Assembly: GCA_015232855.1 (NCBI GenBank)
Contig: JADFYW010000004.1
Span: 21,488-85,487 of the forward strand
Direction: 5' to 3'
Source: Fibrobacteria bacterium
Lineage (GTDB): Bacteria; Fibrobacterota; Fibrobacteria; UBA11236; JADFYW01
DNA length: 64,000 bases
Shown: positions 25,655 through 46,682 of the stretch, piece by piece
Layout: each line of letters opens with the position of its first letter
Numbering within the stretch: the stretch's first letter is position 1
Notes under the pieces: model-generated
Told to the model about the DNA's origin: nothing
Databases searched by the model: none
The model's input: the letters and a program-made list of their open reading frames with translations, nothing else
Translations under genes and position numbers: made by a program

Positions 25655-27007
25655 ATGACAATAAAAGAAAAACCAAAAAATAAGTACCCGTATTACATCG
25701 AAGCTCCCCTGGAGTATAAGCGGGTTGATGCATTTCTCAAGGCGTTTTCCGCTATATTGGAGCACTCCAATTACAAGTTTATCCTGGATTTATATACCCG
25801 GATATCTATGAAATGCGCTCGCTGTGCTTCGGGGTGCCAGATTTATCAGACTACCGGAAAACCTGAGGATATTCCCTGTTATCGCTCCAGCATATTGTTA
25901 CGGATATATAAAAGGCATTTTACGCTAGGTGGATGGATGAAGTCAAAACTCACCGGCGGAAGCGGAATTACCGAAAAGGATATCGATGAAATGCTCGAAT
26001 CCTATTACCAATGTACAGCTTGCAGGCGTTGCACGTTTTATTGCCCCATGGGAATAGAACATGGGATGATAACTCATCTAGGGCGGTATATCCTTGCTGA
26101 AATTGGCATCGTACCAAAGGCTTTGCAAGTGTCTGTTCGTGAGCAATTAGAGGGAGCTTCAAAAAACACATCCGCAATACCCGTACCTGCTTTGATAGAT
26201 ACGCTGGAATTTTTAGAAGAAGAGATAGAAGAGACAAAAGGTATTAAAGTTAAGTTTCCCATTGATGTTGAGGGGGCTGAATATGTGTTTTTTGCTCCTG
26301 TCAGTGATTACCTCCTTGAGGCTGACACCTTGATGGGTATGGCCTGTGTCTTACAAACGGCTGGTATCAGTTGGACTATTGGTACCGGTAATTATGATGG
26401 TATTAACTATGGACTATTTTATAGCGATGATTTTCTCGGTAAAATCGTACGAAATGAAATAGATGAAGTCAGACGATTAAAGGGTAAAAAAATATTAATA
26501 GGGGAGTGTGGACATGCTTCCCGTACGGCCAAAAATTTTGTTCCTACTTATAACGAAGGAAGTGAAATACCCGTAGTGAATCTGCTTGAGCTAACCCTCA
26601 AACTCCTTGAAGAAGGAAAAATTGAACTTGACCCTAATGTGATAACTGAGAAAGTTACCTATCATGACCCCTGTAACTATGTGCGATCGGGTTGGATTAT
26701 AGAGCAGCCACGGAAGATTATCAAGAGCTTTATTAAAAACTTTGTGGAAATGACTCCTAACGGCAAGTACAACCTCTGTTGCGGCGGCGGCGGCGGCACG
26801 GTATCAGTAGATGAAGTGAAAGACTTCCGGATGAACGCGGCCGGGAAAAAAAAGGCTGACCAATTGCGAGCTACCGGGGCCGATATTGTTATTACTCCTT
26901 GCGCTAACTGCAAAAAACAAATTGAGGAAGTAATAGAATATTTTGACTTGCCCATGAAGCGAATGGGCTTGCATGATTTGATTTTAAAAGCGATTAAACT
27001 GAAATAA
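25655..27007 (+). CDS. HdrD/DsrK-like Fe-S oxidoreductase (2x[4Fe-4S] + two CCG domains)
   Basis: CARCASGCQIY and CTACRRCTFYCPMG ferredoxin motifs; CCG-domain cysteines (HDPCNYV, CCGGGGG, CANC). Confidence 0.8.
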   Translation: MTIKEKPKNKYPYYIEAPLEYKRVDAFLKAFSAILEHSNYKFILDLYTRISMKCARCASGCQIYQTTGKPEDIPCYRSSILLRIYKRHFTLGGWMKSKLTGGSGITEKDIDEMLESYYQCTACRRCTFYCPMGIEHGMITHLGRYILAEIGIVPKALQVSVREQLEGASKNTSAIPVPALIDTLEFLEEEIEETKGIKVKFPIDVEGAEYVFFAPVSDYLLEADTLMGMACVLQTAGISWTIGTGNYDGINYGLFYSDDFLGKIVRNEIDEVRRLKGKKILIGECGHASRTAKNFVPTYNEGSEIPVVNLLELTLKLLEEGKIELDPNVITEKVTYHDPCNYVRSGWIIEQPRKIIKSFIKNFVEMTPNGKYNLCCGGGGGTVSVDEVKDFRMNAAGKKKADQLRATGADIVITPCANCKKQIEEVIEYFDLPMKRMGLHDLILKAIKLK

Positions 27008-27019
27008 AGGAAAAGGTTA

Positions 27020-27721
27020 ATGGAACAATTTCTTGAATTTGCGAAAGGCTCTTTGTTTGCGGGGAGTTTCGTTATAATGGTCTTAGGATTGGCACGCACT
27101 GCGTTTATTACGTTGTGGGGTACTAAAAATGCGTTGGATAAAGCAGGGGACAAAAATATTCCGTACAAAGCTCTTATAAAAGAAACCTTTGAATGGATGA
27201 TTCCCATTAAACATATTACCAATTCGAGATCTGCTATCAGCATAGTGTCAGTAGTCTTTCATATTGGCCTTATAATCGTCCCCCTGTTTTTGCTTGATCA
27301 TATTTTACTCTGGCAAAAATTAGGACTGTCCTGGCCTGGTATACCTGCAGCCATTGCTAATGTACTTACCATAACAACGATAGTAACCGGGGGTATTTTG
27401 CTTCTAAACCGTATCTTTCATCGCGATACCCGGTTTTTGAGTTCGGTGATTGATTATGCACTTTTAGTGCTTATTCTGGCCATATTTATAAATGGATTTA
27501 TTGCCTCCAAACCTTTTAATCCTATCCCTTATAACCTTGTAATGGTTATACATGTGATGGCTGGCAATTTGATACTTATCCTCGTACCCTTTTCAAAACT
27601 AGCGCATTGTTTTTTATACCCGATTATGAGAATTGCTTCAAACATTGCCTGGCATTTTCCTGCAAGAGCCGGAGAAGAAGTCAACAAAACACTTTATGGA
27701 GAAGAGAATAAAAAAGTATGA
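27020..27721 (+). CDS. NarI/DsrM/HdrE-like di-heme b membrane subunit
   Basis: Five predicted TM helices with conserved His residues; 233 aa; immediately follows the HdrD-like gene (12-bp gap) and overlaps the next gene. Confidence 0.65.
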   Translation: MEQFLEFAKGSLFAGSFVIMVLGLARTAFITLWGTKNALDKAGDKNIPYKALIKETFEWMIPIKHITNSRSAISIVSVVFHIGLIIVPLFLLDHILLWQKLGLSWPGIPAAIANVLTITTIVTGGILLLNRIFHRDTRFLSSVIDYALLVLILAIFINGFIASKPFNPIPYNLVMVIHVMAGNLILILVPFSKLAHCFLYPIMRIASNIAWHFPARAGEEVNKTLYGEENKKV

Positions 27722-28542
27722 TTGGAATACTCACAGATGTAACAAAGTGCATTGGCTGCCATAAATGCGTAGGCGCGTGTGTGGATGCTAATAAGCTGGA
27801 TAAGCATATTCCAGCACCCCAACATACCAGTGATGGCCTGGCCGCAAACCGCTGGACTTCCATTATTAAACAACCGGACAGCCATTATGTGCGAAAGCAA
27901 TGTCGGCATTGTCTGGAACCGGCCTGTGTTTCAGCCTGTATTGTAGGTGCTCTGAAGAAAACAAAATCAGGGCCGGTAGTATATGATAAAAAGAAATGTA
28001 TTGGTTGTCGCTATTGTATGATGGCTTGCCCCTATGGGGTGCCAAAATATGAATGGGATACTCCCGTACCCTATGTACGTAAATGCACTATGTGTTATGA
28101 ACGGGTCTCTGTTGGCAAACAACCAGCCTGCACGGAGGCTTGCCCAACAGGAGCTACCGTATTTGGGGACCGGGACAAGCTTATCGCTGAAGCAAAGCTG
28201 CGTATAACTAAAAACCCCGAAAAATATATTAACCGGGTTTTTGGTGAAGTTGAGGTTGGTGGAACTTCGGTATTGTATCTATCAGATATTCCACTTGGTT
28301 TCCTTGGCTGGAAAGACGACCTGGGCAAGGAGGCGTTACCCAAACTTACCTGGTCAGCATTAAGTAAGGTTCCGACAGAGTTTTTGGGCATGGGAGCAGC
28401 TATGACAGGGGCGTTTTGGATAATCGGTCGTAGAAACAAAATGCGGGCCATGAAGGTAAAAGAAGAAGCTGAAAAAAAAGCAGTTGAAAATGAAACCGGT
28501 GATGCAGGTACAGAAGAAAAAGGCGAGGACAGTAATGAATAA
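27718..28542 (+). CDS. DsrO/HybA/PsrB-like 4x[4Fe-4S] ferredoxin subunit with C-terminal TM anchor
   Basis: Four Cys clusters (CIGCHKCVGAC; CRHCLEPACVSAC; CIGCRYCMMACP; CTMCYERVSVGKQPACTEACP); C-terminal hydrophobic helix AMTGAFWIIG. Confidence 0.8.
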   Translation: MIGILTDVTKCIGCHKCVGACVDANKLDKHIPAPQHTSDGLAANRWTSIIKQPDSHYVRKQCRHCLEPACVSACIVGALKKTKSGPVVYDKKKCIGCRYCMMACPYGVPKYEWDTPVPYVRKCTMCYERVSVGKQPACTEACPTGATVFGDRDKLIAEAKLRITKNPEKYINRVFGEVEVGGTSVLYLSDIPLGFLGWKDDLGKEALPKLTWSALSKVPTEFLGMGAAMTGAFWIIGRRNKMRAMKVKEEAEKKAVENETGDAGTEEKGEDSNE

Positions 28543-30364
28543 ACGGCAAATGGTTAAATCCCTGCTTTGGTTATTAATTGGGTTTGGCGCAACCAGTGGT
28601 TTCTTGCGATTGGTACACGGTCTGGGAGCGACTACAGGTTTGTCAGACGCAACACCCTGGGGATTCTGGATTGGTTTTGATGTAATGGCCGGTGTGGCTC
28701 TGGCCGCAGGCGGTTTTACGATGGCCGCAGTGGTCTATGTATTTGGTCTGGAGCAGTTTCGGCCCATTGTACGGCCTGCAGTACTTACTGCGTTTTTGGG
28801 TTATGTGATAGTAGCTATAGGGCTCATGATGGACCTCGGGTTACCCTGGAATATATGGCATCCTATGGTGTTTTGGCAATACCGTTCCGTATTGTTTGAA
28901 GTGGGAACCTGTGTGACGCTTTATCTAACCGTACTTGCTCTTGAGGTCGCACCAATTGTACTTGAGCACCCGTTATTTTCGCACCCCATCTTTCATAAAG
29001 CATATAAAATATTAAAACATCTTTCGTTGCCATTGGTAATTTTAGGAATAATGCTTTCGACTCTGCATCAATCTTCTTTGGGATCATTGTTTCTTATCAT
29101 GCCTTTTAGAGTGCATGAATTATGGTATACTTCTAATATCTACATCCTCTATTTTATCTCGGCAGCAGGACTTGGGTGTGCAATGGTGATATTTGAATCA
29201 ACATTAACATCCCTTATTTATGATCATAAACCCCGGCAAGAGTTAATGCAGAAGCTGGGAAAAATAGCTTCAGTCATACTCGGTGTATATCTTGTTTTCC
29301 GTATAGGCGACCTTTTAGTAAAAGGGAAATTAGGTGTAGCATTTAATGGTACCGGTACCAGTACGCTCTTTATCGTGGAAATTCTGATTTCAACTATCAT
29401 TCCGAGTATCTTCTTTAATTGGAAAAAAATTAACGGTAATACCAAAGGATTGTTTTGGACGGCTGCTATGGTTGTATTTGGTTTTATTATGAACCGTCAG
29501 AATATTTTCCTGACCATGAGCAAAAAAGGCCCTGCTTATTTCCCCTGGGTCTCAGAATTGATGATAAGCCTTGCTCTGGTTGCCGGTGCTACCATGGTAT
29601 TTATATTCTTTGTGGAGCATTTTGATTTGTTTGGTGATGGCGCTCCGGATAACAAAAAAGAAATTGGTGAAAAATTAATAACAGGTCCTTTTTTTGGTGC
29701 AGATCGTTCTTTTGTTAAGGGTGTCGCAATCTTTACCGCTCCGGTTATTGCAGGGGTTGGTTTAGCTTTAATGTTATTACCCTCTTCAGCTATCAAAGGA
29801 TATCAATATCCCAATACTCCGGTAAAGGATGCAGTGGGATGGGATACCCTGTCCATTGATGGAAACCGTGCGCTGGAAAGTGTACTGTTTCCCCATGCTC
29901 AGCATCAGCAAATGATGGGTGTTTCTCGAGATTCATGCATGACATGTCACCATATGAGTCGACCTAAAGATGGGCCTACCTCCTGTTCAGAATGTCACCA
30001 GGATATGTATCTTGCTACCTCCATTTTTAGTCATGGGTATCACCAGACCTTAATGGGTGGAAACAAATCATGCGATTCCTGCCATGTGAACACGAAGGCA
30101 AAGGCCGAAGTCTTGTCTTGTAACACTGCCGAATGCCATAAGCTACTTCCCTCTGACACCACCTCTTACCTGGCAGATAGTTATGTGGATGCCATGCATA
30201 AAAAATGCAAGGACTGCCATGAGGAACAAGCTAAACAGGCGGACGGATTTATTGCAATGGGGGAACAGGCCAAAGCAGATTCTGTTAAAGCGCTTGGATA
30301 TTGTACTGCATGTCACCCGGGACTGCCGCCTGAGAGTAAGGTTAGGTTATCAGTGACCAGGTAA
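28535..30364 (+). CDS. NrfD/PsrC/DsrP-like quinone-interacting membrane subunit fused to a C-terminal multiheme cytochrome c domain
   Basis: About 10 TM helices in the first 400 aa; C-terminal ~200 aa with five CxxCH (CMTCHH, CSECHQ, CDSCHV, CKDCHE, CTACHP) plus one CX4CH (CNTAECH); probable start ATG at 28535 overlapping the upstream stop (ATGAATAA). Confidence 0.75.
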   Translation: MNKRQMVKSLLWLLIGFGATSGFLRLVHGLGATTGLSDATPWGFWIGFDVMAGVALAAGGFTMAAVVYVFGLEQFRPIVRPAVLTAFLGYVIVAIGLMMDLGLPWNIWHPMVFWQYRSVLFEVGTCVTLYLTVLALEVAPIVLEHPLFSHPIFHKAYKILKHLSLPLVILGIMLSTLHQSSLGSLFLIMPFRVHELWYTSNIYILYFISAAGLGCAMVIFESTLTSLIYDHKPRQELMQKLGKIASVILGVYLVFRIGDLLVKGKLGVAFNGTGTSTLFIVEILISTIIPSIFFNWKKINGNTKGLFWTAAMVVFGFIMNRQNIFLTMSKKGPAYFPWVSELMISLALVAGATMVFIFFVEHFDLFGDGAPDNKKEIGEKLITGPFFGADRSFVKGVAIFTAPVIAGVGLALMLLPSSAIKGYQYPNTPVKDAVGWDTLSIDGNRALESVLFPHAQHQQMMGVSRDSCMTCHHMSRPKDGPTSCSECHQDMYLATSIFSHGYHQTLMGGNKSCDSCHVNTKAKAEVLSCNTAECHKLLPSDTTSYLADSYVDAMHKKCKDCHEEQAKQADGFIAMGEQAKADSVKALGYCTACHPGLPPESKVRLSVTR

Positions 30365-30613
30365 TCCTCTTTCGTCACTTCGAGTAGTCATCCGAAGCTC
30401 CTGTAAGGAGTGAAGGATGGCATATCGAGAAGTTAATAAGGTAGCAAAGAGTTTTACAAACAGTGTCATAAGAATAAAAAAATGGTTCAACGATGTCATT
30501 CAACGGCTTGACTAGGGAATACACCAAAAGAAATAGCGATTTCCGTCTATTTTACTCACTTTCGTTCGTTGGATTGCCCGGTCAAGCCGGGCAATGACAA
30601 CATGAGGAACAAA

Positions 30614-31003
30614 TCAGTGACGGCAATTACCCGAGCCCTGGCAAACCTGGTTTTGCTCAATTAATGGTAATTTGCCTTCTATAAAAGCATCAACAACGAT
30701 ACCAATTTCAGCACTGGTATTATTAAAGTAGACACCTATTCCAACCTCATTAAAAGCGGAAAGCGGGCGTAATCCTATTCCTCCTACAATAATGGCTGTA
30801 ACGTTTTCCTGTGCAAGTAAATTCACAGGAACAAGACATCCACCTTGTGCATGTTCTTTGTTTCCCAATATAGAGACATTCTTAATTTCTCCATCTGCAA
30901 CGTCAACCAGAGTAAATGAATCACAATGGCCAAAATGATTTGAACGTATTCCCTCAAGACCTCCGATTCCTTTAGACGGAACAGCTATTTTTGCTTTTTG
31001 CAT
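30614..31003 (-). CDS. NifX/NifB-C-terminal-like dinitrogenase FeMo-cofactor-family small protein (non-nif context)
   Basis: 129 aa; KIAVPS...GHCDSFTLVD...AIIVGGIG pattern of the PF02579-type fold; C-terminal CQGSGNCRH. Confidence 0.65.
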   Translation of the reverse strand: MQKAKIAVPSKGIGGLEGIRSNHFGHCDSFTLVDVADGEIKNVSILGNKEHAQGGCLVPVNLLAQENVTAIIVGGIGLRPLSAFNEVGIGVYFNNTSAEIGIVVDAFIEGKLPLIEQNQVCQGSGNCRH

Positions 31004-31073
31004 TTGAGTGTAACTCCTCTTTGACTAATTAAAATTTATTGTATGTATATTAGTTGTAATATGTTTAAAAGAT

Positions 31074-31091
31074 AAGCGAAATTTGTGCCAA
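31074..31091 (-). promoter_or_regulatory. Candidate sigma-54 (-24/-12) promoter upstream of the NifX-like gene
   Basis: Minus-strand reads TTGGCACaaatttcGCtt: GG-N10-GC spacing satisfied, -24 TGGCAC perfect, -12 TCGC partial; about 60 bp upstream of the start at 31003. Confidence 0.4.
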
Positions 31092-31165
31092 TAAAAAGTT
31101 CTATTGATAAACAGTAATTGGATTCTTTTCAATATTGGCTGTTATTTGTAAATGTTAAGAACAAG

Positions 31166-31243
31166 TCATTACCCGGCTTGACCGGGTAATCCATCTAAAA
31201 TTCGACGATTTGCTGGATTGCCCGGTCAAGCCGGGCAATGACA
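31166..31243. repeat. REP-family variant copies (GTCATTACCCGGCTTGACCGGGTAAT / ATTGCCCGGTCAAGCCGGGCAATGAC)
   Basis: Two palindromic units in opposite orientation between the sigma-54 activator and the NifX-like gene; a third copy is at 30571-30598. Confidence 0.7.
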
Positions 31244-31361
31244 TATTGAGTGTATTTACCAATATATGCCAATACTGAACAGATACAAATTTAGTACATC
31301 TTATATTGATGTAAATGGTGCGTAATGAATCATGTTGCACCAATGTATTGCAATTCCGCAA

Positions 31362-32705
31362 TTATTGTAGCATTCCAAATTTTTTCATTTTACGCCAGAG
31401 CGTACTTTTATTTATCCCCAGGTATTCCGCAGTAAGTTTTTTACTGTTATTAAACTTCCTCAATGCTTTCCGGAGTGCCATTTCTTCTGCCTGGTGCAGG
31501 GGATGTTGAGGCTCTTGTGTGGCAAGGGGCTGGTCCGGTAAATTTTTAGTGAGTTCAGAAGGGAGATGACGGGGCTGAATTACAGAATTCCGGCACAGAA
31601 CGAACGCGTACTCAATGAAATTTTCAAGTTCACGCACGTTTCCGGGATAGTTATATCGCATAAGAAGATCCAGAGCGTCTTCAGAAACGTCCTCGATATC
31701 TTTACCTTTCTGAACATTAAACATTTGAATAAAATGGTCAATAAGGAGCGGAATGTCTTCGCGTCTTTTTGAAAGAGGGGGAAGGTAGAGGCGGATTACA
31801 TTGAGCCGGTAATAGAGGTCGTCTCTAAAGTCACCATTAGCGACCAGTTCTGAAAGCGGTCGGTTGGTTGCTGCAATAATCCGAACATTGGCTTTTACCG
31901 AACATTCTGAACCAAGGGGATCGTATTCTTTTTCTTGTAATACCCGAAGCAGTTTGGTTTGGAGAACCGTGGAAATATCTCCTATTTCATCCAGGAATAA
32001 TGTGCCTCCTTCAGCCAAAGCAAAGCGTCCGGGTTTATTTTTCTTAGCATCAGTAAAAGCGCCCTGTACATAGCCAAAAAGTTCAGACTCCAAAAGTGTA
32101 TCTGGTAAGGCCGTACAATTAAGGGCAATGTATTTACCTTTACGACCACTCAGGTTGTGGATTGCTTTCGCAAAGAGCTCTTTACCAGAGCCACTGGGAC
32201 CTTCAATGAGAACTGTACTGTTACTTTTTGCAAGATCGGGTAATATATCGATAATCTTATGGATCTCATGATTTTTGGAAATGATGTCTTCAAAAGAGTA
32301 TTTGTTTTTAATCTTTTTTCGTAGCAATTCAAGTTCGGAGAGATTACGGAAGGTTTCCACTCCACCTATTATTTTATTGGTTTGATTTCGAAGGGTAGAT
32401 GTGGAAATACTGATAGGGATTTTCTGACCGCTATTGTCCAGAATAGTTACTCTTCGATTAACTATGGACTCACCACTTTGCAGGGTTTGTTGAAGGGAAC
32501 ACCCCTTTTTACAAATATTAGCTCTGAAAACATCAGAACATTTTTTGGTTAACGCTTCTGTTTTAGACACCCCGGTGATTTGCTCCGCAGCTCGGTTAAA
32601 GAAGGTGATGTTGTAGTTGAGATCTATGGTAAAAACACCATCAGCAATAGAATCAAGAATGGTGTCTCTGGCTTCTTCGGGTGTGGGATTCTGAGTATCT
32701 TTCAT
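31362..32705 (-). CDS. Sigma-54-dependent transcriptional activator with Cys-containing PAS sensor (paralog 2)
   Basis: GPSGSGKE, ESELFGYVQGAFTDA, LFLDEIGD, C-terminal Fis HTH (KKLTAEYLGINKSTLWRKMKKFG); PAS with KKCSDVFRANICKKGC. Confidence 0.9.
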   Translation of the reverse strand: MKDTQNPTPEEARDTILDSIADGVFTIDLNYNITFFNRAAEQITGVSKTEALTKKCSDVFRANICKKGCSLQQTLQSGESIVNRRVTILDNSGQKIPISISTSTLRNQTNKIIGGVETFRNLSELELLRKKIKNKYSFEDIISKNHEIHKIIDILPDLAKSNSTVLIEGPSGSGKELFAKAIHNLSGRKGKYIALNCTALPDTLLESELFGYVQGAFTDAKKNKPGRFALAEGGTLFLDEIGDISTVLQTKLLRVLQEKEYDPLGSECSVKANVRIIAATNRPLSELVANGDFRDDLYYRLNVIRLYLPPLSKRREDIPLLIDHFIQMFNVQKGKDIEDVSEDALDLLMRYNYPGNVRELENFIEYAFVLCRNSVIQPRHLPSELTKNLPDQPLATQEPQHPLHQAEEMALRKALRKFNNSKKLTAEYLGINKSTLWRKMKKFGMLQ

Positions 32706-32826
32706 GTAAGAAATGTCTCAATTCGTATGGTCTATTCTATGAGTAAATTTAACAAAAAATAAAGGTTTTTGGGCTTATTTCGCGATTTATAAAGCCCTGA
32801 GTATACAAATCACAGGTGTAATAATC

Positions 32827-33330
32827 TTAATACATACAGATAGCCAAATACCCGACTATTGTCCCAAAAATTATGCCTGCTAGAATATCAGTAAGAAAAT
32901 GCATGGTTAGATAGATCCGGGAAAAACAAACCATCCCTGCAATAACCAATAAAAAAATAAAGATGTTGGGGAAGGACTGGGAAACAACCACCAAAAGCAT
33001 GGCTGATCGTAAGGCATGATGGGAGGGAAATGAATTTTTGTGCCAGGGAAAGGGTATCAAAAATTGAGGGTTTGTGCACGGTCGTTTTCTTTTTACTAAA
33101 CGTCGGAAAACCAGTATCACACAAAGACCAATAATTTCGCCTAACACAATTGTATAAACCACCCTTCGAAAGTTGGGAACAAATATCCAGGTACTCACAT
33201 AAATTATGACCATGCTGTGGCCAGCGCCCAGAGTGGAAATCATTCTAAAAAGAATACTGAGGTAGCGGCTTTGGTGGTTAATAAACCAATTGGATATGAC
33301 GGTATCTAAGTATTGCATCTTTGATATCAT
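32827..33330 (-). CDS. PAP2-family membrane phosphatase
   Basis: PAP2 motifs KRKRP, PSHH, SRIYLTMHFLTD; 4-5 TM helices. Confidence 0.7.
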   Translation of the reverse strand: MISKMQYLDTVISNWFINHQSRYLSILFRMISTLGAGHSMVIIYVSTWIFVPNFRRVVYTIVLGEIIGLCVILVFRRLVKRKRPCTNPQFLIPFPWHKNSFPSHHALRSAMLLVVVSQSFPNIFIFLLVIAGMVCFSRIYLTMHFLTDILAGIIFGTIVGYLAICMY

Positions 33331-33338
33331 AGATAATG

Positions 33339-34160
33339 TTATAACAACTTTTCGATTGCTATTCCTCTTTTTATAGCTGCCTTCATGCCTTTAATTATTT
33401 CATCCTGATATGCCGTTTTGTTGAAATAACTAAGTATACCGTCCTCTGATTTACCAAAACATATAGCCTGAAGCTTGGCTTCTTTGGATAGCGGGTTAGT
33501 ATTAATATTGTGTGATTTTAATGCATGGAGAATGTTTTTGTGGTCGTGAAAGCCGCTCTGGGGTTTAAGTTTAATACTAATAGGGGAATGGGGAATGGTT
33601 ATTACTTCACCATTAAGCATGTTGAAAGCAAGGTCACCCACTTTTTTCATTCTTTTAAAATCAACGGTATCTGCAAGTGTTCCGTTCCTATCACGGTCTA
33701 TGATACGTTGCCTGGTAAGTAACGGATCGATACTTAAATAAATAATAGCATCAAAAAATCGCAGATTTTGTGTTCTTATAAGCCGGATATTCTCGTATAC
33801 ATATCCCGGCCTGAAAATAAAACGTTCTCTCAGTTCTTTCCAGTAAAGAGTTCTCCATTTGAGACCTGTATTTTTTGCTAGACTTCGTCCCAGAGTACTT
33901 TTACCACTTCCGGGTAAACCGTCAATGGCGATAAGTTTTGGGGTGATATTATGGCTTTTCAGAATGTTTATAATTTGCCGGGCATGTTCCTCAGTTTCTG
34001 GTACTGTTCGATATTGTTTTTCTGTACTGCCTGTAGTCAACTTCCGAAATTGACTCCGTATAAGTGATTGAACAGTACGCTTTTTAAGCAAAGCTGCAGC
34101 AGTAACCCCTGCAAAAGTGAGGGTAGCTTCCGGCATAAAATTTTTGACTTTATATCCCAT
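33339..34160 (-). CDS. P-loop NTPase / putative small-molecule kinase of unknown specificity
   Basis: Walker A GLPGSGKST at residue ~82; no other family signature recognised; 8-bp gap to the PAP2 gene. Confidence 0.35.
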   Translation of the reverse strand: MGYKVKNFMPEATLTFAGVTAAALLKKRTVQSLIRSQFRKLTTGSTEKQYRTVPETEEHARQIINILKSHNITPKLIAIDGLPGSGKSTLGRSLAKNTGLKWRTLYWKELRERFIFRPGYVYENIRLIRTQNLRFFDAIIYLSIDPLLTRQRIIDRDRNGTLADTVDFKRMKKVGDLAFNMLNGEVITIPHSPISIKLKPQSGFHDHKNILHALKSHNINTNPLSKEAKLQAICFGKSEDGILSYFNKTAYQDEIIKGMKAAIKRGIAIEKLL

Positions 34161-34186
34161 TGAGTACCTTCTAAGCGAAAAAAACG

Positions 34187-34300
34187 AGTAATCAGTAATC
34201 AGTTGTCAGTCGTCAGTTTTTAATGAGAACTCCGCATTAATTATGATTTTCGAAGAACTTAATAATTCTGCTGAGGAACCTAATTCTGGTAACTGGGAAC
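34187..34300. repeat. Heptanucleotide (CAGTNNT)n MITE-like element
   Basis: CAGTAAT CAGTAAT CAGTTGT CAGTCGT CAGTT at 34193-34218 and inverted AACTGGGAACTGATAACT at 34281-34300. Confidence 0.5.
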
Positions 34301-34658
34301 TGATAACTATTCTCTTCTATTAATAAAATACGTAACCATATTTAAAACGCAAAATCTATGCCAATTAGGGTGATGGCCGAAAAGTTGGAACGGTAAAAGT
34401 TGGAACGCTTTTTGCAACATATATAGTAGAGCCTGAAACAGATTAAAAATGTTGCAAATATGCAATTGTATGTTGCAAAAGAGAGGTGGAAATAGGATAT
34501 GATGCACGTTAAGAAATTTTTTTATTTATCTGCAATTTTTGTTATAGTGGGCGTAGTCTTTCTTCAAGTCTTCTTTATTTTGCCTGGGGTTAGTTGGAAC
34601 GTCCGCACCACAGGTGTAGTGGCAATTTCAATTTTAATGTATTTGTCCTGCGCTCTGT

Positions 34659-36008
34659 TTGTCACATTATGGTATAAATACGTGGAATAAATTGTCTATT
34701 AAAGACATTATCCTCGATTCCATTGCTGAGGGGGTATTTACCGTTGATCGTGATTTTACCATTAATTATTTCAATCGACGGGCCGAGTTTATTACCGGCA
34801 TATCCAGAGAAAAGGCCATTGGTTGTAAATGTTATGATGTATTCCGTGTAAATATTTGTAATACTAATTGTGCCCTAAAAAATGCTATTAAAGATGATGC
34901 AAAATATGCTGTTAACAATGTGGATATCATAAACAGCAAGGGCAAGAAAGTACCTATCAGCATAAATGCTTCTGTACTTAAAGATGATAATGGAAACATT
35001 TTAGGTGGTGTAGAGACTTTTCTTGACCAAAGTGAAGTGAGTACCCTGAGAAAAACAATTAAGGCTGGATATAGTAGCGAAGATATCATTTCACAGAACA
35101 AGCAAATCCATGATATGCTTGATATTCTTCCTGATATCGCTGAAAGCACGAGCACTGTTTTAATAGAAGGTGATAGTGGAACGGGTAAAGAGCTGATAGC
35201 CAGAGCTATACATAATTTAAGTGGGAGAAAAGGTCGCTTTGTAGCTGTTAATTGTGCTTCCCTCCCTGAGTCACTTATAGAATCAGAACTTTTTGGGTAT
35301 GAAAAAGGTGCTTTTACTGATGCCAAGAAAAATAAACCTGGCAGGTTTGCATTGGCAAAAGGAGGAACACTTTTTCTTGATGAAATAGGAGAACTGCCTG
35401 GTACCGTTCAATCGAAATTATTGCGGGTGTTACAAGAAAAAGTATATGAACCGTTGGGAGGTGAAATACCAATACCAACTGATGCCCGCATCGTGTCTGC
35501 TACCAATAGAAATTTAAAACAGCGGGTAGAAGAAAAGGCTTTTAGACAGGACTTGTTTTATCGGCTTAATGTCATAAAGCTGTTATTACCGCCATTAAAT
35601 CAGAGAAAAGAAGATATACCTCTGTTAATAGAACATTTCATTAACAAAATGAATGCGATTACTGGCAAAAATATACAAAGTGTCTCAGAAGATGCTCTTG
35701 AACTATTGACTAACTATGATTACCCGGGTAATATTAGAGAATTGGAAAATGTGATTGAATATGCTTTTGTAATGTGTAAAGAGCGGGTCATAGAACCAAA
35801 ATACCTTTCAAAAGACATCATCACAAACCAAAAGACAGTAAACCACAATACTTTCTCAGAACAATACCCACGTTTTGGATTAATTGAAAAAGACCAGATT
35901 GTTGATGCACTCCACAGGTCATACGGAAAAAAATCAAAAGCCGCAGAACTGCTGGGCGTTAATCGGAGTACCTTGTGGAGACAGATGAAAAAACATCATA
36001 TGGTGTGA
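34659..36008 (+). CDS. Sigma-54-dependent transcriptional activator with Cys-containing PAS sensor (paralog 3)
   Basis: GDSGTGKE, ESELFGYEKGAFTDA, LFLDEIGE, Fis HTH (SKAAELLGVNRSTLWRQMKKH); PAS with GCKCYDVFRVNICNTNC. Confidence 0.9.
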   Translation: MSHYGINTWNKLSIKDIILDSIAEGVFTVDRDFTINYFNRRAEFITGISREKAIGCKCYDVFRVNICNTNCALKNAIKDDAKYAVNNVDIINSKGKKVPISINASVLKDDNGNILGGVETFLDQSEVSTLRKTIKAGYSSEDIISQNKQIHDMLDILPDIAESTSTVLIEGDSGTGKELIARAIHNLSGRKGRFVAVNCASLPESLIESELFGYEKGAFTDAKKNKPGRFALAKGGTLFLDEIGELPGTVQSKLLRVLQEKVYEPLGGEIPIPTDARIVSATNRNLKQRVEEKAFRQDLFYRLNVIKLLLPPLNQRKEDIPLLIEHFINKMNAITGKNIQSVSEDALELLTNYDYPGNIRELENVIEYAFVMCKERVIEPKYLSKDIITNQKTVNHNTFSEQYPRFGLIEKDQIVDALHRSYGKKSKAAELLGVNRSTLWRQMKKHHMV

Positions 36009-36094
36009 AACGGTTGCGCATCATTTGCATCACTTGCAACAAGCAGGGCAGGGGGATGTAAACCCAATTGCATTAATTTTCAACATTTCATACC

Positions 36095-36110
36095 TGGCAC
36101 ATAATTTGCA
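36095..36110 (+). promoter_or_regulatory. Consensus sigma-54 promoter (TGGCAC-N5-TTGCA) for the downstream NifX-like gene
   Basis: Exact TGGCACataatTTGCA at 36095-36110; the NifX-like ATG is at 36124, so a very short or absent leader. Confidence 0.6.
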
Positions 36111-36123
36111 ATAACTATGAGGT

Positions 36124-36582
36124 ATGGAGCACGATATAAAAATAGCAATTCCATTAACAGGTGAGCGTGTTGCTCATCGACTTGATTGCGCAGAGTCCAT
36201 TTTATGGATTACTTTTCGGGATGGACTTATTGTATATAAGAAAAAAAGCAAATATCCTTTTGAACAATGCAGGTTTTCTATCCAGCATTTTCTTGATTAT
36301 GGTGTGAGGGCACTCATTTGTGGAGCGTTAGAAAAACATATGGTCTATAAACTATCTGTCCATGGGATTACTGTATTCCAGTGGGTTACTGCAGATGCTG
36401 ATGATGCTGTTGTGGCTTTCCAGAAAGGGGAACTCTCACCATTTATGATAATTGAACCTGGAGGTCGAAAACGGGGAAGCTGGAGCGGAAAGAATAATCG
36501 GGACTATGATGTTCAAGATACAACAGCAATATACCGCAGTCAAGGTAGGGGACGAAGAAAAGGACGGCGAGGTAATGAGTAA
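36124..36582 (+). CDS. NifX/NifB-C-terminal-like FeMo-cofactor-family small protein with Arg/Gly-rich tail
   Basis: MEHDIKIAIPLTGERVAHRLDCAES...ALICGALE pattern; 152 aa. Confidence 0.6.
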   Translation: MEHDIKIAIPLTGERVAHRLDCAESILWITFRDGLIVYKKKSKYPFEQCRFSIQHFLDYGVRALICGALEKHMVYKLSVHGITVFQWVTADADDAVVAFQKGELSPFMIIEPGGRKRGSWSGKNNRDYDVQDTTAIYRSQGRGRRKGRRGNE

Positions 36583-36727: not shown

Positions 36728-37063
36728 ATGCCGAGAAATAATAAAACAGGCCCCCGGGGCCAGGGACCCGGTACGGGCAGGGGAATGGGAGCCTGCGAGG
36801 AAGGCGTTGGTTCAACTGCTACTATGACCGGAATACCAGGACATAACGCTGGATATGGTCGTGATGGTGGAAGACGCCGTGGCCGATGTGCGGGAAATGG
36901 ATACACTGGGAACGGTTATTCCTTCGATACCCCAAAAATGGAAAATAATCTGGAACAGTTAGAGTCAGAAATGAAGAGTCTTGAAGAAAGAATAAAGGAT
37001 ATACATAGTCACATAAATAAGCTGAAAGAAGACTCGTCAGAAGCAGATAACAATACTGACTGA
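36728..37063 (+). CDS. Gly/Arg-rich protein with C-terminal coiled coil (DUF5320-like)
   Basis: Low-complexity GPRGQGPGTGRGMG N-half and an LEQLESEMKSLEERIKDIHSHINKLKE heptad C-half; often found next to NifX-like genes. Confidence 0.4.
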   Translation: MPRNNKTGPRGQGPGTGRGMGACEEGVGSTATMTGIPGHNAGYGRDGGRRRGRCAGNGYTGNGYSFDTPKMENNLEQLESEMKSLEERIKDIHSHINKLKEDSSEADNNTD

Positions 37064-40482: not shown

Positions 40483-40630
40483 TAGTTATGCCAGTGCTTA
40501 AATTATTGAAAAAAGATGAGTTTGCAACAGAAAATTGCATTCGTGCAATAGTTAGTGTTGTAAAAATGAAACCAAATGGTTGCGTTTAAACAAACATAGT
40601 GTACTTTCAAATAAGTCTTTTCAGGTTGTT

Positions 40631-40990: not shown

Positions 40991-41902
40991 TTAAACCGTA
41001 CTATCAAGAAACAGCTCAACCTCTTCAATGTGCTCGCCTTTAAACAATGCGGTTGAGCGAATTTTTTCCATGTAATAGTCGAGCTGTTTCAGATTCCAGG
41101 TGTCTGGTGCATTAATCACAATTCCGGCCCAGTATTTCTGGCCTTTACGCTGGAGTTTTATAGAAGAGATCATGGCTTCCGGCATTTCGTCTTCAATAAG
41201 AACCTGTAGTTTATGTGCAAAATCAGGTTCCGGTTCTTTATCCAGAATGATATTAACGGGTTCTTTCCATTGGTGATAGGCGTCCCTGATAATAATAATC
41301 CCTACAATGGCTGCTGCCAGAGGGTCGAGGATCTGCCAGGCACCACCGAATTGTGATAATAGAATCCCAATAGAAACGCCACAAGAAGAGAGCATATCGG
41401 CCTTATTCTGGTATGCATTCGCTTTCATACCACCACTTTTAAGTTCTCTCCCTGCGCACAGACTGTATTTAAACATAATGTAATTCAGAAGAATAGAGAG
41501 GATCGCAACCGGGAAGGTGATAAAAGAAGGCGGATAAAACCCGCCCCTGAGTAATTGGGTGATATTGGTAACAAAAATAAAGATACCCAGCGCAAAAAGG
41601 ATGCTGTAAACGAGCAGAGAGGTAATAAATTCGGCTTTTCGATAGCCGAAAGGATGAGAAAAATCAGGGTCTTTTTTAGAAGCATGTATACTGTACAGTA
41701 TAATAAGGCCACCGACCACGCAGGAAAATGATTGCAGGCCATCTGCCATGAGACCATTACTATTAAACCACATACCCATGAGGAATTTCAAAACAGCGAG
41801 AAATAGATTTGCTGCTATACTCCAAATCATGATGCGGTTGCCGCAGCTTGGGCAACGGTGGGTACTTGCACAAACACCCGGGTTAAATAGTGTTTTAAAC
41901 AT
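40991..41902 (-). CDS. Cation diffusion facilitator (CDF) transporter, MamB-like (N-terminal CxxC motif)
   Basis: Six TM helices, HPFGYRKAEF TM2 signature, C-terminal cytoplasmic domain; N-terminal CASTHRCPSCGN as seen in MamB; last gene of a seven-gene operon. Confidence 0.6.
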   Translation of the reverse strand: MFKTLFNPGVCASTHRCPSCGNRIMIWSIAANLFLAVLKFLMGMWFNSNGLMADGLQSFSCVVGGLIILYSIHASKKDPDFSHPFGYRKAEFITSLLVYSILFALGIFIFVTNITQLLRGGFYPPSFITFPVAILSILLNYIMFKYSLCAGRELKSGGMKANAYQNKADMLSSCGVSIGILLSQFGGAWQILDPLAAAIVGIIIIRDAYHQWKEPVNIILDKEPEPDFAHKLQVLIEDEMPEAMISSIKLQRKGQKYWAGIVINAPDTWNLKQLDYYMEKIRSTALFKGEHIEEVELFLDSTV

Positions 41903-42773
41903 GACGCCCCTTAACGTTTACATAGCAGTTTGATTGGCCAGCAATGGCTCCCTGAATATTTGCAATAATTGAACGTATAATTGTTTTTGATTGCTTGACT
42001 GAGGTGGTTTCAGAGAGAGAAATAGAACTGTAAATTTCCATACTATTTTTTTGCTTAACAATTTTTAAAGCAATAAGGCGTATATCTTTGTGTGCCCTAA
42101 GAATATGAGGTTTAAGTAGAGAGCGGGAGACCGTAGGCAGGCTGGTGTCCATTAAACTCTGATATGCTTTACTCAAGCTGTAAATACTGTAGATGAGAAC
42201 ACCTAACGCCATAGCCGCGGCAGCCAGGTAATCGGTAATAAATGGACCGCTTCTGGAAATGATAATGATAAAGATGGAAGCCGCAGTGCATAAGAAATCA
42301 AAGCCGGTGATAAAGATAAGCTTTTTGTAATGTTTACTCGTATGCAGGCTCGTATGGGACTGTAAATAGTTTAGGAGAATAAAATTAATGGCCATAAAAA
42401 TAACTGCTATCCAGGCAGAAGCCATGGCAGGAGGGTATATCATATGAAAAAACATGACATGGGCAAAGGCATACAACAATGCACAGGTGGCGAGAACAAT
42501 AATAAGAGAAAGTCCCGCCAGTAGGAAAAAGGAAAGTTTATCATAGGAAAATATGGCCTTTTTATGGCTTTTCTTTTTGTGTTTTGCCTGGAACTCAATA
42601 ATGCAAAGCAGTGCGGTAAATGCACCAAATAAAGAGGGCAGTCCGGCCACCAGTAACGATTTTGCATTATAGATAGCGCCAAAAGCTACCTTAGAAATAA
42701 ACAGGCATACATAAATAATAAGCGCCTGGTAGAGAATGGCAGCAGCAGTGTTTTGGTTTGACCTTTTTGCCAT
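41895..42773 (-). CDS. Divergent CDF-family transporter paralog (MamM-like?), metal-site residues degenerate
   Basis: CDF-like TM topology plus C-terminal cytoplasmic domain, but the TM2 motif is FSYDKLSF instead of PFGY-type; 8-bp overlap with the downstream CDF gene. Confidence 0.45.
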   Translation of the reverse strand: MAKRSNQNTAAAILYQALIIYVCLFISKVAFGAIYNAKSLLVAGLPSLFGAFTALLCIIEFQAKHKKKSHKKAIFSYDKLSFFLLAGLSLIIVLATCALLYAFAHVMFFHMIYPPAMASAWIAVIFMAINFILLNYLQSHTSLHTSKHYKKLIFITGFDFLCTAASIFIIIISRSGPFITDYLAAAAMALGVLIYSIYSLSKAYQSLMDTSLPTVSRSLLKPHILRAHKDIRLIALKIVKQKNSMEIYSSISLSETTSVKQSKTIIRSIIANIQGAIAGQSNCYVNVKGRHV

Positions 42774-42774
42774 T

Positions 42775-43506
42775 TTACATACTCACGCCTGCTGGCGTTC
42801 CCATAATTGCATGACAATTAGAACAGACTCCCCGGTATTCATGTATCATTTGGGCGGTAAAAGAAATGGCAATATCAGGATGAATCTGGTGGCAACTGGC
42901 GCATACCCCCCGGTATTCGTGGGGGAGTATGGCATCCCTGAAGATAGGCGGGGCCAGGTTATTTAAATTATACGATTGTACACCGGGATGTGTGGATGCA
43001 TTCCAATGCCGGTTATTTTCGTTTGGGATAGTTGAGGGTGGGGTATAGGCTACTGCAGCACCTTGAGGAGTGGCCCCCGGGAAACAATTAGCCACACTGG
43101 GACAAGTTGCGCAACCGGGAGGAATGGTAGCCGCAACGGTTTGCCCTTGAGGAGTGGCCCCTGGGAAGCAATTAGCCACACTGGGACAAGTAACACATCC
43201 GGGAGGAATGGTAGCCGCAACGGCTTGACCTTGAGGAGTAGCTCCCGGGAAGCAATTAGCCACACTGGGACAAGTAACGCAACCGGGAGGAATAGTAGCA
43301 GCGACGGTTCTTCCCTGAAGGGGAGCTGTAATACCCGTGTTTGCTTCTACCCGTTCTTCGATAGTAAGGAATATGGCAAAAACAATAACCAGAAGTGCAA
43401 TCCCCCCGCCTATAAGTATTGGTTTTTGGTTTGTTTTGGAAATCTTAGGAAATAATTTTTGAGGAGCCTCACCTTCAAGCATATCGTCGAGTTCATTGTC
43501 TGTCAT
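42775..43506 (-). CDS. Membrane-anchored protein with three 28-aa Cys-rich tandem repeats and two magnetochrome-type c-heme motifs (MamT/MamP-like)
   Basis: N-terminal TM; 3x TVAATIPPGCVTCPSVANCFPGATPQGQ; C-terminal LPHEYRGVCASCH and MIHEYRGVCSNCH both fit the magnetochrome HxxRGxCxxCH consensus. Confidence 0.6.
   Translation of the reverse strand: MTDNELDDMLEGEAPQKLFPKISKTNQKPILIGGGIALLVIVFAIFLTIEERVEANTGITAPLQGRTVAATIPPGCVTCPSVANCFPGATPQGQAVAATIPPGCVTCPSVANCFPGATPQGQTVAATIPPGCATCPSVANCFPGATPQGAAVAYTPPSTIPNENNRHWNASTHPGVQSYNLNNLAPPIFRDAILPHEYRGVCASCHQIHPDIAISFTAQMIHEYRGVCSNCHAIMGTPAGVSM
43085..43340. repeat. Three near-identical 84-bp in-frame tandem repeats inside the magnetochrome gene
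   Basis: DNA-level repeat GCAACCGGGAGGAATGGTAGCCGCAACGG... encoding the 28-aa Cys-rich unit three times; produces spurious antisense ORFs. Confidence 0.85.
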
Positions 43507-43525
43507 TATTTCTCCTTAACGGTTT

Positions 43526-43972
43526 TTAGAATGCGCCCGGCCTCACACCGGGGACCAGGGCAGCGATAACCTGTTGTCCCTGTCTGTTTATGGTTAATCT
43601 GATTGTTTTGTTATTTGCGGTATTACTGAGATTCTTGCCGAACTGCTTTTGGCTGGTAATGCTTTTACCGTTCCATTTGCTGATGATATCCCCGTTTTTG
43701 ATGTTTGCCGCAGCAGCGGGAGATCCGATAAAGACCCTGGTCACCAGTAATCCCCGGGAAGCTGTGATGTTATATTGTTTTTTAATGGTGCGGTTAAGTT
43801 CAACAGTTTCTATTCCCAGCCATTTTCCCTGCATGCCGGGTTCGCTGTTTGTACGGTGCATCCTGGAAGCCATAAGCAAAAAGGTAAGGGATAGTAAACC
43901 TGCAATAAAGAAAAACATATTACGCTTCATCGTATCATACCGTTCTAATTGTGCTTTACGTGTTTTGTTCAT
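43526..43972 (-). CDS. Single-TM PDZ-domain protein (MamP/MamE N-terminus-like)
   Basis: N-terminal TM (FFFIAGLLSLTFLLMA), then a PDZ core GLLVTRVFIGSPAAAANIKNGDIISKWNG...IRLTINRQGQ. Confidence 0.6.
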   Translation of the reverse strand: MNKTRKAQLERYDTMKRNMFFFIAGLLSLTFLLMASRMHRTNSEPGMQGKWLGIETVELNRTIKKQYNITASRGLLVTRVFIGSPAAAANIKNGDIISKWNGKSITSQKQFGKNLSNTANNKTIRLTINRQGQQVIAALVPGVRPGAF

Positions 43973-44859
43973 GTTTCGTCAGTTTCTGGTTGTGGCAGAA
44001 CTCTGGTCTGATTTTTTTCAGGACCCACCCGCATGGACACGTTTTCACATTTCAAACATTTTAAGCAGCGTACACAGGCAGAATGATTGGGATCGTGGCT
44101 TACATTAAGCTCAACCAAACAGTCACCGACACATTTATTGCAATCTTTACAATGGCCGGTGTCTACTTGCAGCCGTACAAGACTGAAGCGATTGAAAAAC
44201 CCCATTATGGCGCCAAGAGGGCAAATAACCCTGCAGAATGGTCTTTTGGCAATAACAAATAGGCAGAGGAAGCTAAGAAGGATTACCAGTTTAATAAGAA
44301 ACATGGTCCCAATAGCGCTGGCAGAAACTGCAGGGATATTATCAACAGGCATCATAGGATTCCAGATAATCCAGGGGAGACCTGCCTGAAGAGTACCCAT
44401 AGGACAGAGTTTTGAAAACCAGGTTTCCTGCGTAAAAAAGGGTATAAGGAAAATCAGGAATAGCAAGACAAAGTATCGGAAAGACGTCAACTGATTGGGT
44501 ATGGTGATTTTAAAACTTTTGATTTTGTACATCAGGTCTTGTAAAAGACCAAAAGGACATAACCAGCCACAAGCCATGGCCCCCACTGTCATAGATATGG
44601 CAAGTAGATATCCGATAACTGTAAAAGGAATTTTATGGATGGTAACAAAATGCTGGATGGCCCCGATAGGACAGGTGAAAAATGAAGTAGGGCAGCTGTG
44701 GCAATTCAAAAAAGGTACGCAAACACTTTTAAGGGAACCCTGATAAATCTTTTTGGTTTTGAGGAAGCCCATATAGGCATTTGGAATAATAAACGAAAGC
44801 CATTGGGAAATAACGCGTGCCCGTTCTATCATGTTCAACTGTTTCAGGTCTTTCTCCAT
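43969..44859 (-). CDS. NapH/MauN-like membrane polyferredoxin (4 TM + 2x[4Fe-4S])
   Basis: Conserved CHSCPTSFFTCPIG and CGWLCPFGLLQD (NapH-type motifs), C-terminal CKDCNKCVGDC and CVRCLKCLKC clusters. Confidence 0.6.
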   Translation of the reverse strand: MEKDLKQLNMIERARVISQWLSFIIPNAYMGFLKTKKIYQGSLKSVCVPFLNCHSCPTSFFTCPIGAIQHFVTIHKIPFTVIGYLLAISMTVGAMACGWLCPFGLLQDLMYKIKSFKITIPNQLTSFRYFVLLFLIFLIPFFTQETWFSKLCPMGTLQAGLPWIIWNPMMPVDNIPAVSASAIGTMFLIKLVILLSFLCLFVIAKRPFCRVICPLGAIMGFFNRFSLVRLQVDTGHCKDCNKCVGDCLVELNVSHDPNHSACVRCLKCLKCENVSMRVGPEKNQTRVLPQPETDET

Positions 44860-45000
44860 GAGATTATTCCAGACCTATACAGGCAAGACACATTGATGCA
44901 CCGTCATCCTGGATTTCCAGAACATCGTTGTTTAAATCACCCAACAGAAGAAATAGGAAGGCAAAGAGGTAGAGGATGGTGATAAATTTCCAGTTTGAAT

Positions 45001-46608: not shown

Positions 46609-46682
46609 TGACTACTGACTACTGACTACTGACTACTGACTACTGACTACTGACTACTGACTACTGACTACTGATTACTGAA
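46609..46682. repeat. Heptanucleotide tandem repeat (ACTGACT)x~10.5, same CAGTNNT family in reverse orientation
   Basis: gactactgactactgac... continuous for 74 bp, ending 11 bp before the ATG of the histidine kinase gene at 46693. Confidence 0.9.

Follow-up and report, generated by a model that had tools for sequence, protein, structure and literature searches.

OrpR-like Cys-PAS activators of sigma-54 RNA polymerase and their candidate orange-protein-family target genes in a Fibrobacteria genome

The DNA considered here, a 64 kb stretch of the 85.6-kb contig JADFYW010000004.1 from a Fibrobacteria bacterium metagenome-assembled genome (MAG; locus tags HQK83_019xx) and hereafter called the window, carries three paralogous genes, EBP1, EBP2 and EBP3, for sigma-54 activators of the enhancer-binding protein (EBP) class with a cysteine-bearing PAS domain (Cys-PAS). 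EBP2 and EBP3 are each followed by a sequence resembling a sigma-54 promoter and by a gene for a Nitro_FeMo-Co protein (PF02579; protein and gene are both called NFM below), and a third NFM gene, NFM237, heads a magnetosome-like module (Table 1). The arrangement recalls OrpR (DVU2106) and the orp operons of Desulfovibrio vulgaris Hildenborough (DvH; PMC3897727, PMC8359166, PMC4641369). The open reading frames (ORFs) of the window were scanned against Pfam, and motif counts were set against chance expectation and shuffles of the window. For comparison, 80 loci were collected with an alignment of the Cys-PAS domain in a scan using one genome per species, ORFs were called in them, and hidden Markov models were built from the window proteins. 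Planctomycetota, Thermodesulfobacteriota, Zixibacteria, Ignavibacteria, Fibrobacterota, KSB1, Nitrospirota and a Clostridia MAG, among others, are represented in these loci; single loci are cited by L numbers where they have to be told apart.

Table 1. Activators, NFM genes, predicted control sites and associated genes in the 64 kb window.
Feature	Position	Strand	Evidence or remarks
EBP1, third OrpR-type paralog	21154-22485	+	Pfam, Cys triad, GAFTDA
Weaker candidate pair downstream of EBP1	TTGCATATTGCAT at 22820, TGGCACGATAATTGA at 22896		Motif scan
NFM129, ORP/MTH1175-family Nitro_FeMo-Co protein	30614-31003	-	PF02579 E = 8.7e-17, 61.7 bits
Sigma-54 promoter candidate TGGCACAAATTTCGCT	31090-31075	-	GG-N10-GC kept; predicted start ~31064
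Palindrome TTGCGGAATTGCAA, 1 mismatch, R/Y flanks kept	31348-31361	.	Abuts EBP2 stop codon, the usual place in the family
EBP2, OrpR-type sigma-54 activator, 447 aa	31362-32705	-	Pfam; helix-turn-helix (HTH) ...LGINKSTLWRKMKK; MBF0430003.1
PAP2 phosphatase gene	32827-33330	-	Pfam; 5' of EBP2, same strand
P-loop kinase-like gene	33339-34160	-	Pfam; 5' of EBP2, same strand
Sigma-54-like site TGGCATAGATTTTGCG	34363-34348	-	Faces P-loop/PAP2/EBP2 genes
Exact palindrome G-TTGCAAATATGCAA-T	34452-34465	.	Centre 96 bp upstream of the 34363 site
EBP3, OrpR-type sigma-54 activator, 449 aa	34659-36008	+	Pfam; HTH ...LGVNRSTLWRQMKK
Candidate enhancer TTGCA-N5-TGCAA	36025-36039	.	Centre 64 bp upstream of -24 GG of the exact promoter
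Predicted sigma-54 promoter TGGCACATAATTTGCA	36095-36110	+	Exact TGGCAC-N5-TTGCA; predicted start ~36121
NFM152, divergent Nitro_FeMo-Co protein (MTH1175/ORP-like), basic Arg/Gly tail	36124-36582	+	PF02579 E = 6e-4
DUF5320 gene, usual second gene of the conserved cluster	36728-37063	+	Pfam E = 1.7e-17
Hybrid kinase, 1094 aa	37180-40464	-	Domains given in the text
Exact palindrome with sigma-54-like site TGGCATAACTATTGCT	40535-40548; 40493-40478	-	15 nt before ATG 40464 of the hybrid kinase
Rest of magnetosome module: 110-aa Cys-rich membrane protein, NapH/Mad6-like Fer4_5, PDZ, magnetochrome, two CDF (MamM/MamB-like)	40991-45333	-	Pfam
NFM237, N-terminal membrane anchor, Nitro_FeMo-Co, C-terminal CxxC...CxxC	45335-46048	-	PF02579
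Head of magnetosome-like operon: palindromes (1 mismatch; exact) and sigma-54-like site TGGTACGTTCTTTGCT	46160-46173; 46126-46139; 46074-46059	-	

The three activators share one architecture, consisting of a PAS domain, a sigma-54-interacting AAA+ domain and a Fis-type HTH without a receiver domain; in EBP2 and EBP3 the Pfam families are PAS, Sigma54_activat, AAA_lid_14 and HTH_8. EBP3 is 100% identical to NCBI MBF0430006.1. All three PAS domains contain K-C-x-[DE]-x6-C-x3-C, i.e., a C-x8-C-x3-C triad with an acidic residue at C+2, and all three AAA+ domains carry the loop GAFTDAKK. The triad is kept in 119 of the 120 best homologues, and GAFTDA occurs in 57 of 77 Cys-PAS activators of the collected loci. 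The same features mark OrpR, where the PAS cysteines C52, C61 and C65 together with Asp/Glu54 are required for sensing, the PAS domain binding a redox-sensitive [4Fe-4S] cluster (PMC8359166), and where the loop is listed as GAFTDA and the regulon consists of the two orp operons (PMC4641369). Scores for PrdR, NifA, NorR and other NCBIfam equivalogs were far below their cut-offs. A first-pass annotation of this DNA had described a repeated module of a Cys-PAS activator followed by a NifX-like gene. The ORFs and Pfam domains bear out the module, whereas the word repeated needs qualification: the paralogs are 51–57% identical to one another, and EBP2, at 55–57% identity to EBP1 and EBP3, is nearer to proteins of other genomes (66–68%), which argues for old paralogs and against a recent local duplication.

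It is conceivable that the Cys triad binds another cofactor or a metal, or forms disulfides, and that the activators report metal, sulfide, nitric oxide or O2. Cluster binding and its three Cys ligands have been established for the DvH protein only, and the presence of three paralogs in one window suggests divergent inputs. On the other hand OrpR has the identical triad spacing and acidic residue at C+2, both of which are nearly invariant in the family, and a signal of another kind is in our judgement unlikely.

The association of activator and NFM gene recurs widely. Among the 73 Cys-PAS activators with at least 700 bp of downstream sequence, 42 are followed by an NFM gene on the same strand within 900 bp. 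The common order is activator, NFM of the NFM152 type, DUF5320, NFM, MinD, MinD and NFM of the NFM129 type, and NFM-DUF5320 fusions recur in other loci. Judged by this gene order, EBP3, NFM152 and DUF5320 are the front part of the conserved cluster, while EBP2 with NFM129 is an activator paired with the NFM type that usually stands at the back.

Reading of the activator-NFM spacers revealed TTGCA-N4-TGCAA palindromes directly past the activator stop codon. The extended motif is RTTGCA-N4-TGCAAY, with conserved R/Y flanks. Counted at up to one mismatch to TTGCA-N4-TGCAA, palindromes occur at 2.58 per kb in these spacers against 0.11 per kb over all loci, a difference of about 25-fold, and in 19 of 39 loci, from many phyla, one stands directly after the activator gene. 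Of exact palindromes with a four-base spacer there are 36 copies in all loci, with spacers of five to eight bases 0–2 copies; a three-base spacer is used in five regions. The sites are often paired, 33 bp apart, their centres lying about 105 and 138 bp from the -24 GG. Activators with N4 sites share the recognition helix ...LGI.K(S/T)TLWRKMKK, which EBP2 and EBP3 also possess. The DvH-type motif GGGCG...CGCCC was matched only in L042, L081 and L060 among the loci; near-perfect copies of the DvH OrpR motif (GGGCGTTTTTTGCGCCC; L042 11569, L081 11643-11764, L060 4450-4858) lie there beside multi-PAS Cys-PAS activators. In L081 and L060 the activators have a different helix, ...LGISKDTLRRKI (SKDTLRRKI), and the ORF called in L042 has an unrelated C-terminus. 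A search with the core of the L081 activator returned multi-PAS Desulfobulbales-type proteins only and no Desulfovibrio OrpR. The strongest indication that the activators themselves bind these palindromes is the covariation of palindrome type with the activator HTH. As far as motif occurrence can tell, binding to GGGCGYRTTTTGCGCCC, the motif of DvH OrpR, is a trait of the Desulfovibrio branch and not of the whole family.

The window itself has three exact palindromes of the RTTGCA-N4-TGCAAY type (34452, 40535 and 46126) against 0.2 expected, a number reached in none of the 100 shuffles. All three are intergenic (0.018 expected in the 9.0 kb of intergenic DNA), and each lies upstream of a sigma-54-like site. 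Two further copies with one mismatch were found at 31348 and 46160, and the R/Y flanks are kept in all five. For palindromes with N3 or N5 spacers the window shows no excess over chance, hence the sites at 22820 and 36025 carry little weight by themselves.

An alternative is that the palindromes are bound by another regulator, for example one of the CRP/FNR type, and that the activators use other, unrecognised sites. The FNR box, TTGAT-N4-ATCAA, has a 5-4-5 geometry which the palindromes resemble in their spacing, and the distances from palindrome to promoter in the window (50–96 bp) are shorter than the 105 and 138 bp of the family. This is hard to reconcile with the position of the palindromes directly behind activator genes in many phyla and with their change of type alongside the recognition helix, and no CRP/FNR-family gene was seen among the scanned ORFs of the window. 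We consider binding by another regulator quite improbable.

The promoters proposed in the first-pass annotation were both recovered. TGGCACATAATTTGCA is the sole exact TGGCAC-N5-TTGCA in 64 kb, where 0.04 are expected (one copy in 4 of 100 shuffles), and the NFM152 start codon at 36124 lies 15 nt past its -12 C. TGGCACAAATTTCGCT, 73 nt before the NFM129 ATG at 31003, retains GG-N10-GC and has TCGC where TTGC is expected. Relaxed sigma-54 matches number 8 in the window against 3.4 expected. In the collected loci, 26 of the 42 spacers between activator and NFM gene contain a site with intact GG and GC and up to two mismatches, and a search around the conserved start MK(I/V)A(I/V)P found about 35 NFM152-type genes with a GG-N10-GC site no more than 50 nt upstream. 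The -12 C stands either 14–19 nt or 25–32 nt from the ATG, and the exact promoter of the window is of the shorter class. A -12 C 15 nt from the start is seen at three genes of the window (36109-36124, 40479-40464 and 46060-46045), and distances of 14–19 nt in about 10 other loci; such spacing implies leaderless or near-leaderless mRNAs. For the sigma-54-like sites at 46074, 40493 and 34363, transcription is predicted to begin near 46048, 40467 and 34337. The proposal that each activator drives the neighbouring NifX-like gene through sigma-54 is thus strengthened by the conserved gene order, by the sites abutting the start codon and by the covarying palindrome.

The distance of 265 bp between palindrome and promoter upstream of NFM129 is explained by the insertion of two copies of a GC-rich hairpin, TTGCCCGGCTTGACCGGGCAA, resembling repetitive extragenic palindromes. 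The window has three copies (30574-30594, 31169-31189 and 31218-31238), all bracketing NFM129 and its promoter; two of them (31169-31238) lie between EBP2 and the promoter and may end the EBP2 transcript, the third lies past NFM129, and as a set they resemble a small cassette or a terminator pair.

It could be argued that the sigma-54-like sequences arose by chance, and that the NFM genes are read through from the activators or transcribed from sigma-70-type promoters, as the relaxed matches are only moderately enriched, the NFM129 site deviates from TTGC, and rpoN was not seen in the window. Set against this are the low expectation for the exact site and the equivalent sites that dozens of homologous loci have at the corresponding position. 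Between EBP2 and NFM129 there is a hairpin, and a scan of the window for sigma-70 promoters and terminators gave nothing above shuffled expectation, the sigma-70-like matches being weak. In addition, four sigma-54-type AAA+ genes within 20 kb imply that sigma-54 is present. A chance origin is in our opinion highly unlikely.

The NFM proteins were classed in the first-pass annotation as NifX/NifB-C-terminal-like. Membership in the PF02579 superfamily stands; the branch does not. NFM152 by itself scores 20.4 bits, under the curated PF02579 cut-off of 26.3 bits, whereas 26 of 27 relatives gathered from homologous loci match the family. The profile of this subfamily matches eight solved MTH1175-like chains, the structures being PH0822, TM1290, TM1816, MJ0327, MTH1175 and the orange protein (ORP) of D. 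gigas. NFM129 and NFM237 match the MTH1175/TM1290/PH0822/ORP group too, and neither NifX nor NafY is among the solved-structure matches of NFM129, NFM237 or the NFM152 profile. In NCBIfam, NFM129 and NFM152 align to the C-terminal domain of MrpORP. NFM152 represents the conserved first gene after OrpR-type activators, and the closest relatives of NFM129 are NFM genes 3' of MinD-type ATPases in full clusters. NCBI labels NFM152 a hypothetical protein. By these comparisons the NFM proteins are of the MTH1175/ORP branch, not the NifX/NafY branch. As had been stated earlier, the window has no nitrogenase gene, and no other nif gene is found among its scanned ORFs either; it had also been supposed that a nif cluster elsewhere in the genome would turn these genes into nif accessories, which would not follow for proteins of the MTH1175/ORP branch. 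That they are ordinary nitrogenase cofactor accessories (NifX/NafY/NifB-C) with nif partners elsewhere is scarcely credible, for although NCBI names two of them NifB/NifX family and PF02579 is shared, the structure matches, the NCBIfam grouping and the conserved partners (activator, DUF5320 and MinD-type ATPases) all point away from nif.

Among the Orp proteins are Orp8, the orange protein, and MrpORP, which has a dinitrogenase Fe-Mo cofactor domain as its second domain; homologues of Orp8 carry a Mo/Cu-sulfide cluster, homologues of Orp5 a [2Fe-2S] cluster, and the Di-Nase domain of MrpORP an Fe-S cluster (PMC6345978). The target proteins of the window probably handle Fe-S or other metal-sulfide clusters, and a role as Fe-S or metallocluster carriers is plausible, as it fits these published homologues.

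NFM237 had been noted earlier as a third, membrane-anchored NifX-like domain at the head of a magnetosome-like operon, and its PF02579 match (E = 1.7e-12, 47.9 bits, residues 54-141, after a hydrophobic N-terminal segment) agrees with this. It is the first gene of the module, in which the magnetochrome MCR domain is matched with E = 1.1e-13, and it belongs to a rare family of proteins of about 235 amino acids (17 found among 5.8 billion). TGGTACGTTCTTTGCT lies 12 or 15 nt before its two ATGs. The palindromes at 46126 and 46160 are 34 bp apart, which matches the geometry of the family, and 59 and 93 bp from the promoter, nearer than usual. An exact palindrome and a sigma-54-like site also precede the hybrid kinase gene, which encodes a PAS domain with a C-x8-C-x4-C variant, a histidine kinase, two receivers, an AAA+ domain and an HTH; as KLPDGSYD replaces the GAFTGA loop, this kinase is probably unable to contact sigma-54. 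It is tempting to speculate that the magnetosome module and the hybrid kinase gene have been wired into an OrpR-type regulon, a tentative proposal on which we are nearly evenly divided, leaning slightly against.

The same gene order is found in L085 (an Omnitrophica MAG), L086, L088 and L089, reading NFM, a 116-aa Cys-rich protein, a 45-aa protein, Fer4_5, PDZ, magnetochrome, CDF-like and CDF; LemA, TauE and additional CDF genes also stand in the flank of L085. In five contigs with orthologous modules, from the set L084-L089, the upstream DNA has neither a sigma-54 site nor a palindrome, so the sigma-54/palindrome head is specific to this genome among those sampled, and the wiring, if real, would be lineage-specific. 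An HTH_17 gene lies immediately upstream of the module in L084 and L088 and about 230 bp upstream in L085. The best PAS match, an activator in the MAG named Candidatus Magnetocorallium, has no magnetosome-type gene within 10 kb, hence a general link between activator and magnetosome cannot be claimed. In other genomes, OrpR-type operons include a CDF transporter and a CDF-Nitro_FeMo-Co fusion (L001 11058-12275; L002 8881-10053 and 11885-13353), and one such locus has a MamS_MamX-domain gene beside a sigma-54-driven NFM pair with palindromes of its own. A specific tie between these CDF proteins and the MamB-like protein of the window was rejected, as 26% identity indicates a generic relation only.

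The modules share every sequence-level hallmark of OrpR/orp that was checked, which argues for OrpR-type identity, and it is rather probable that members of the OrpR/orp regulatory system are present here, outside Deltaproteobacteria. Each activator would then be a one-component sigma-54 enhancer-binding protein. By analogy with DvH OrpR, the Cys triad and the Asp/Glu residue of its N-terminal PAS domain would carry a redox-labile [4Fe-4S] cluster, and at low redox potential the intact cluster would lift the inhibition that the PAS domain exerts on the AAA+ domain. The Fis-type HTH, to go by motif conservation and HTH covariation, would bind RTTGCA-N4-TGCAAY just past its own gene, and the activator would remodel sigma-54 RNA polymerase at the -24/-12 promoter. 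ORP/MTH1175-family proteins and DUF5320 would in this way be transcribed into almost leaderless mRNAs, and a rise in potential would end this transcription through decay of the cluster. What has been observed are the domains, the motifs, the promoter and palindrome sequences and their recurrence in many loci; cluster binding, the signal, promoter activity, the pairing of paralogs with sites and the function of the targets are predicted from them.

Several points speak against OrpR-type identity as just described. MinD-type ORFs, present in most homologous loci, are lacking in the window, as is rpoN. The palindrome before the exact promoter is the N5 variant, one base longer than the family motif and with a 5' flank not of the family type. 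The exact consensus for integration host factor (IHF), WATCAR-N4-TTR, occurs in none of the five palindrome-to-promoter intervals, which is to be read with the low information of this consensus and the possible bending of AT-rich DNA alone, and the DvH OrpR motif has no match at up to three mismatches in the window. The likeness to OrpR is drawn from the published features of DVU2106, and the source organism is an uncultured MAG known here from its sequence alone.

Other features of the neighbourhood may be recorded briefly. The P-loop kinase-like gene, the PAP2 gene and EBP2 may, from their spacing, form one operon. A 63-aa ORF with two hydrophobic segments (34499-34690, +) overlaps the EBP3 start; the sigma-54-like sequence TGGAACGCTTTTTGCA at 34401-34416 (+) lies 5' of it, with the palindrome downstream of that site. 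EBP1 is followed by response-regulator and kinase genes and then by DsrMK-like genes. There are two DsrMK-like sets (25655-30364 and 58808-61317), each with CCG/Fer4 and a NarI-like membrane subunit, and the first, 3' of EBP1 and the response-regulator/kinase trio, also has a 4Fe-4S protein and an NrfD-like/multihaem cytochrome fusion. Short repeats occur in two sigma-54-associated intergenic regions: a tandem heptamer, (TGACTAC)x10, at 46609-46681 between the head of the magnetosome operon and a divergent kinase gene, and related CAGTAAT/CAGTTGT heptamers at about 34185-34215 in the long leader of the P-loop gene. An 84-bp in-frame tandem repeat within the magnetochrome gene (43060-43309) encodes three Cys-rich 28-aa units, AATIPPGCVTCPSVANCFPGATPQGQ. 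Farther away, genes for a Pycsar effector-like membrane protein (PycTM; 3646-4188) and for an MbnB/TglH/ChrH enzyme modifying ribosomally synthesised peptides (RiPPs) with a DUF2063 partner (4513-6203) are adjacent. An Rfam scan of the window gave no match.

The OrpR/orp system has been studied in one Desulfovibrio, and the unit is now seen in Planctomycetota, Zixibacteria, Ignavibacteria, Fibrobacterota, KSB1, Nitrospirota and others. The enhancer motif and the promoter abutting the start codon can be put to the test in the Escherichia coli reporter system that served for DVU2106. What ORP/MTH1175-like proteins do has been a question since the first structures, and three kinds of context suggest metal or iron handling at low redox potential: an NFM with a membrane anchor heading a magnetosome module, NFM-CDF fusions in other loci, and the placing of both under the same predicted redox switch. 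Should the magnetosome wiring be true, transcription of magnetosome iron and redox genes would be conditional on low redox potential through an Fe-S PAS activator, which would tie the ORP/MTH1175 family to iron handling and show concretely how the magnetosome genes of a deep-branching lineage could come under redox control. To our knowledge no dedicated transcriptional switch has yet been proposed for any magnetosome operon, so that this would be the first. Fibrobacterota have been described as a new magnetotactic phylum (PMC7602337).

Compared with known systems, the window comes closest to OrpR/orp of DvH, which reportedly was also the subject of work by Fievet in 2011 and which is stated in the literature to be restricted to Deltaproteobacteria. 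Both have one-component PAS/AAA+/HTH activators with the C-x8-C-x3-C triad, the acidic residue at C+2 and GAFTDA; in both the activator gene adjoins sigma-54 promoters, predicted ones in the window, driving Nitro_FeMo-Co (orange protein) genes; and in both there are palindromes beside the activator's own gene, bound in the case of OrpR and predicted to be bound here. They differ in that RTTGCA-N4-TGCAAY and another recognition helix take the place of the 17-bp OrpR motif, in that there are three paralogs rather than one, and in that the targets are minimal (NFM with DUF5320 or NFM alone), without the Mrp/MinD ATPases Orp3, Orp4 and Orp9 in the window. The host belongs to Fibrobacteria, no exact IHF site was found, and control signals also precede a magnetosome module. 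Among proteins of solved structure, the ORP/MTH1175 group (D. gigas ORP, 2WFB; MTH1175, 1EO1; TM1290, 1RDU; TM1816, 1O13; PH0822, 2YX6), together with the Di-Nase domain of MrpORP, is matched by NFM129, the NFM152 subfamily profile and the NFM237 domain; the basic Arg/Gly tail of NFM152 and the membrane anchor and additional CxxC...CxxC of NFM237 set these two apart. With the NifX/NafY/NifB C-terminal domain PF02579 is held in common, whereas the window genes lack nif context, have other neighbours and are nearer to MTH1175/ORP. FmpB (DMR_41100) of the Desulfovibrio magneticus RS-1 magnetosome island combines magnetochrome, PDZ and NifX/NifB domains (PMC4287615), and the window likewise has a NifX/NifB-type domain inside a magnetosome cluster, near PDZ, magnetochrome, Mad6 and MamB genes; in this comparison, made by description only, NFM, PDZ and magnetochrome are separate genes in the window. 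What appears to be new relative to the known OrpR/orp system is the binding motif and HTH class, the minimal set of targets, the three old paralogs and the host phylum.

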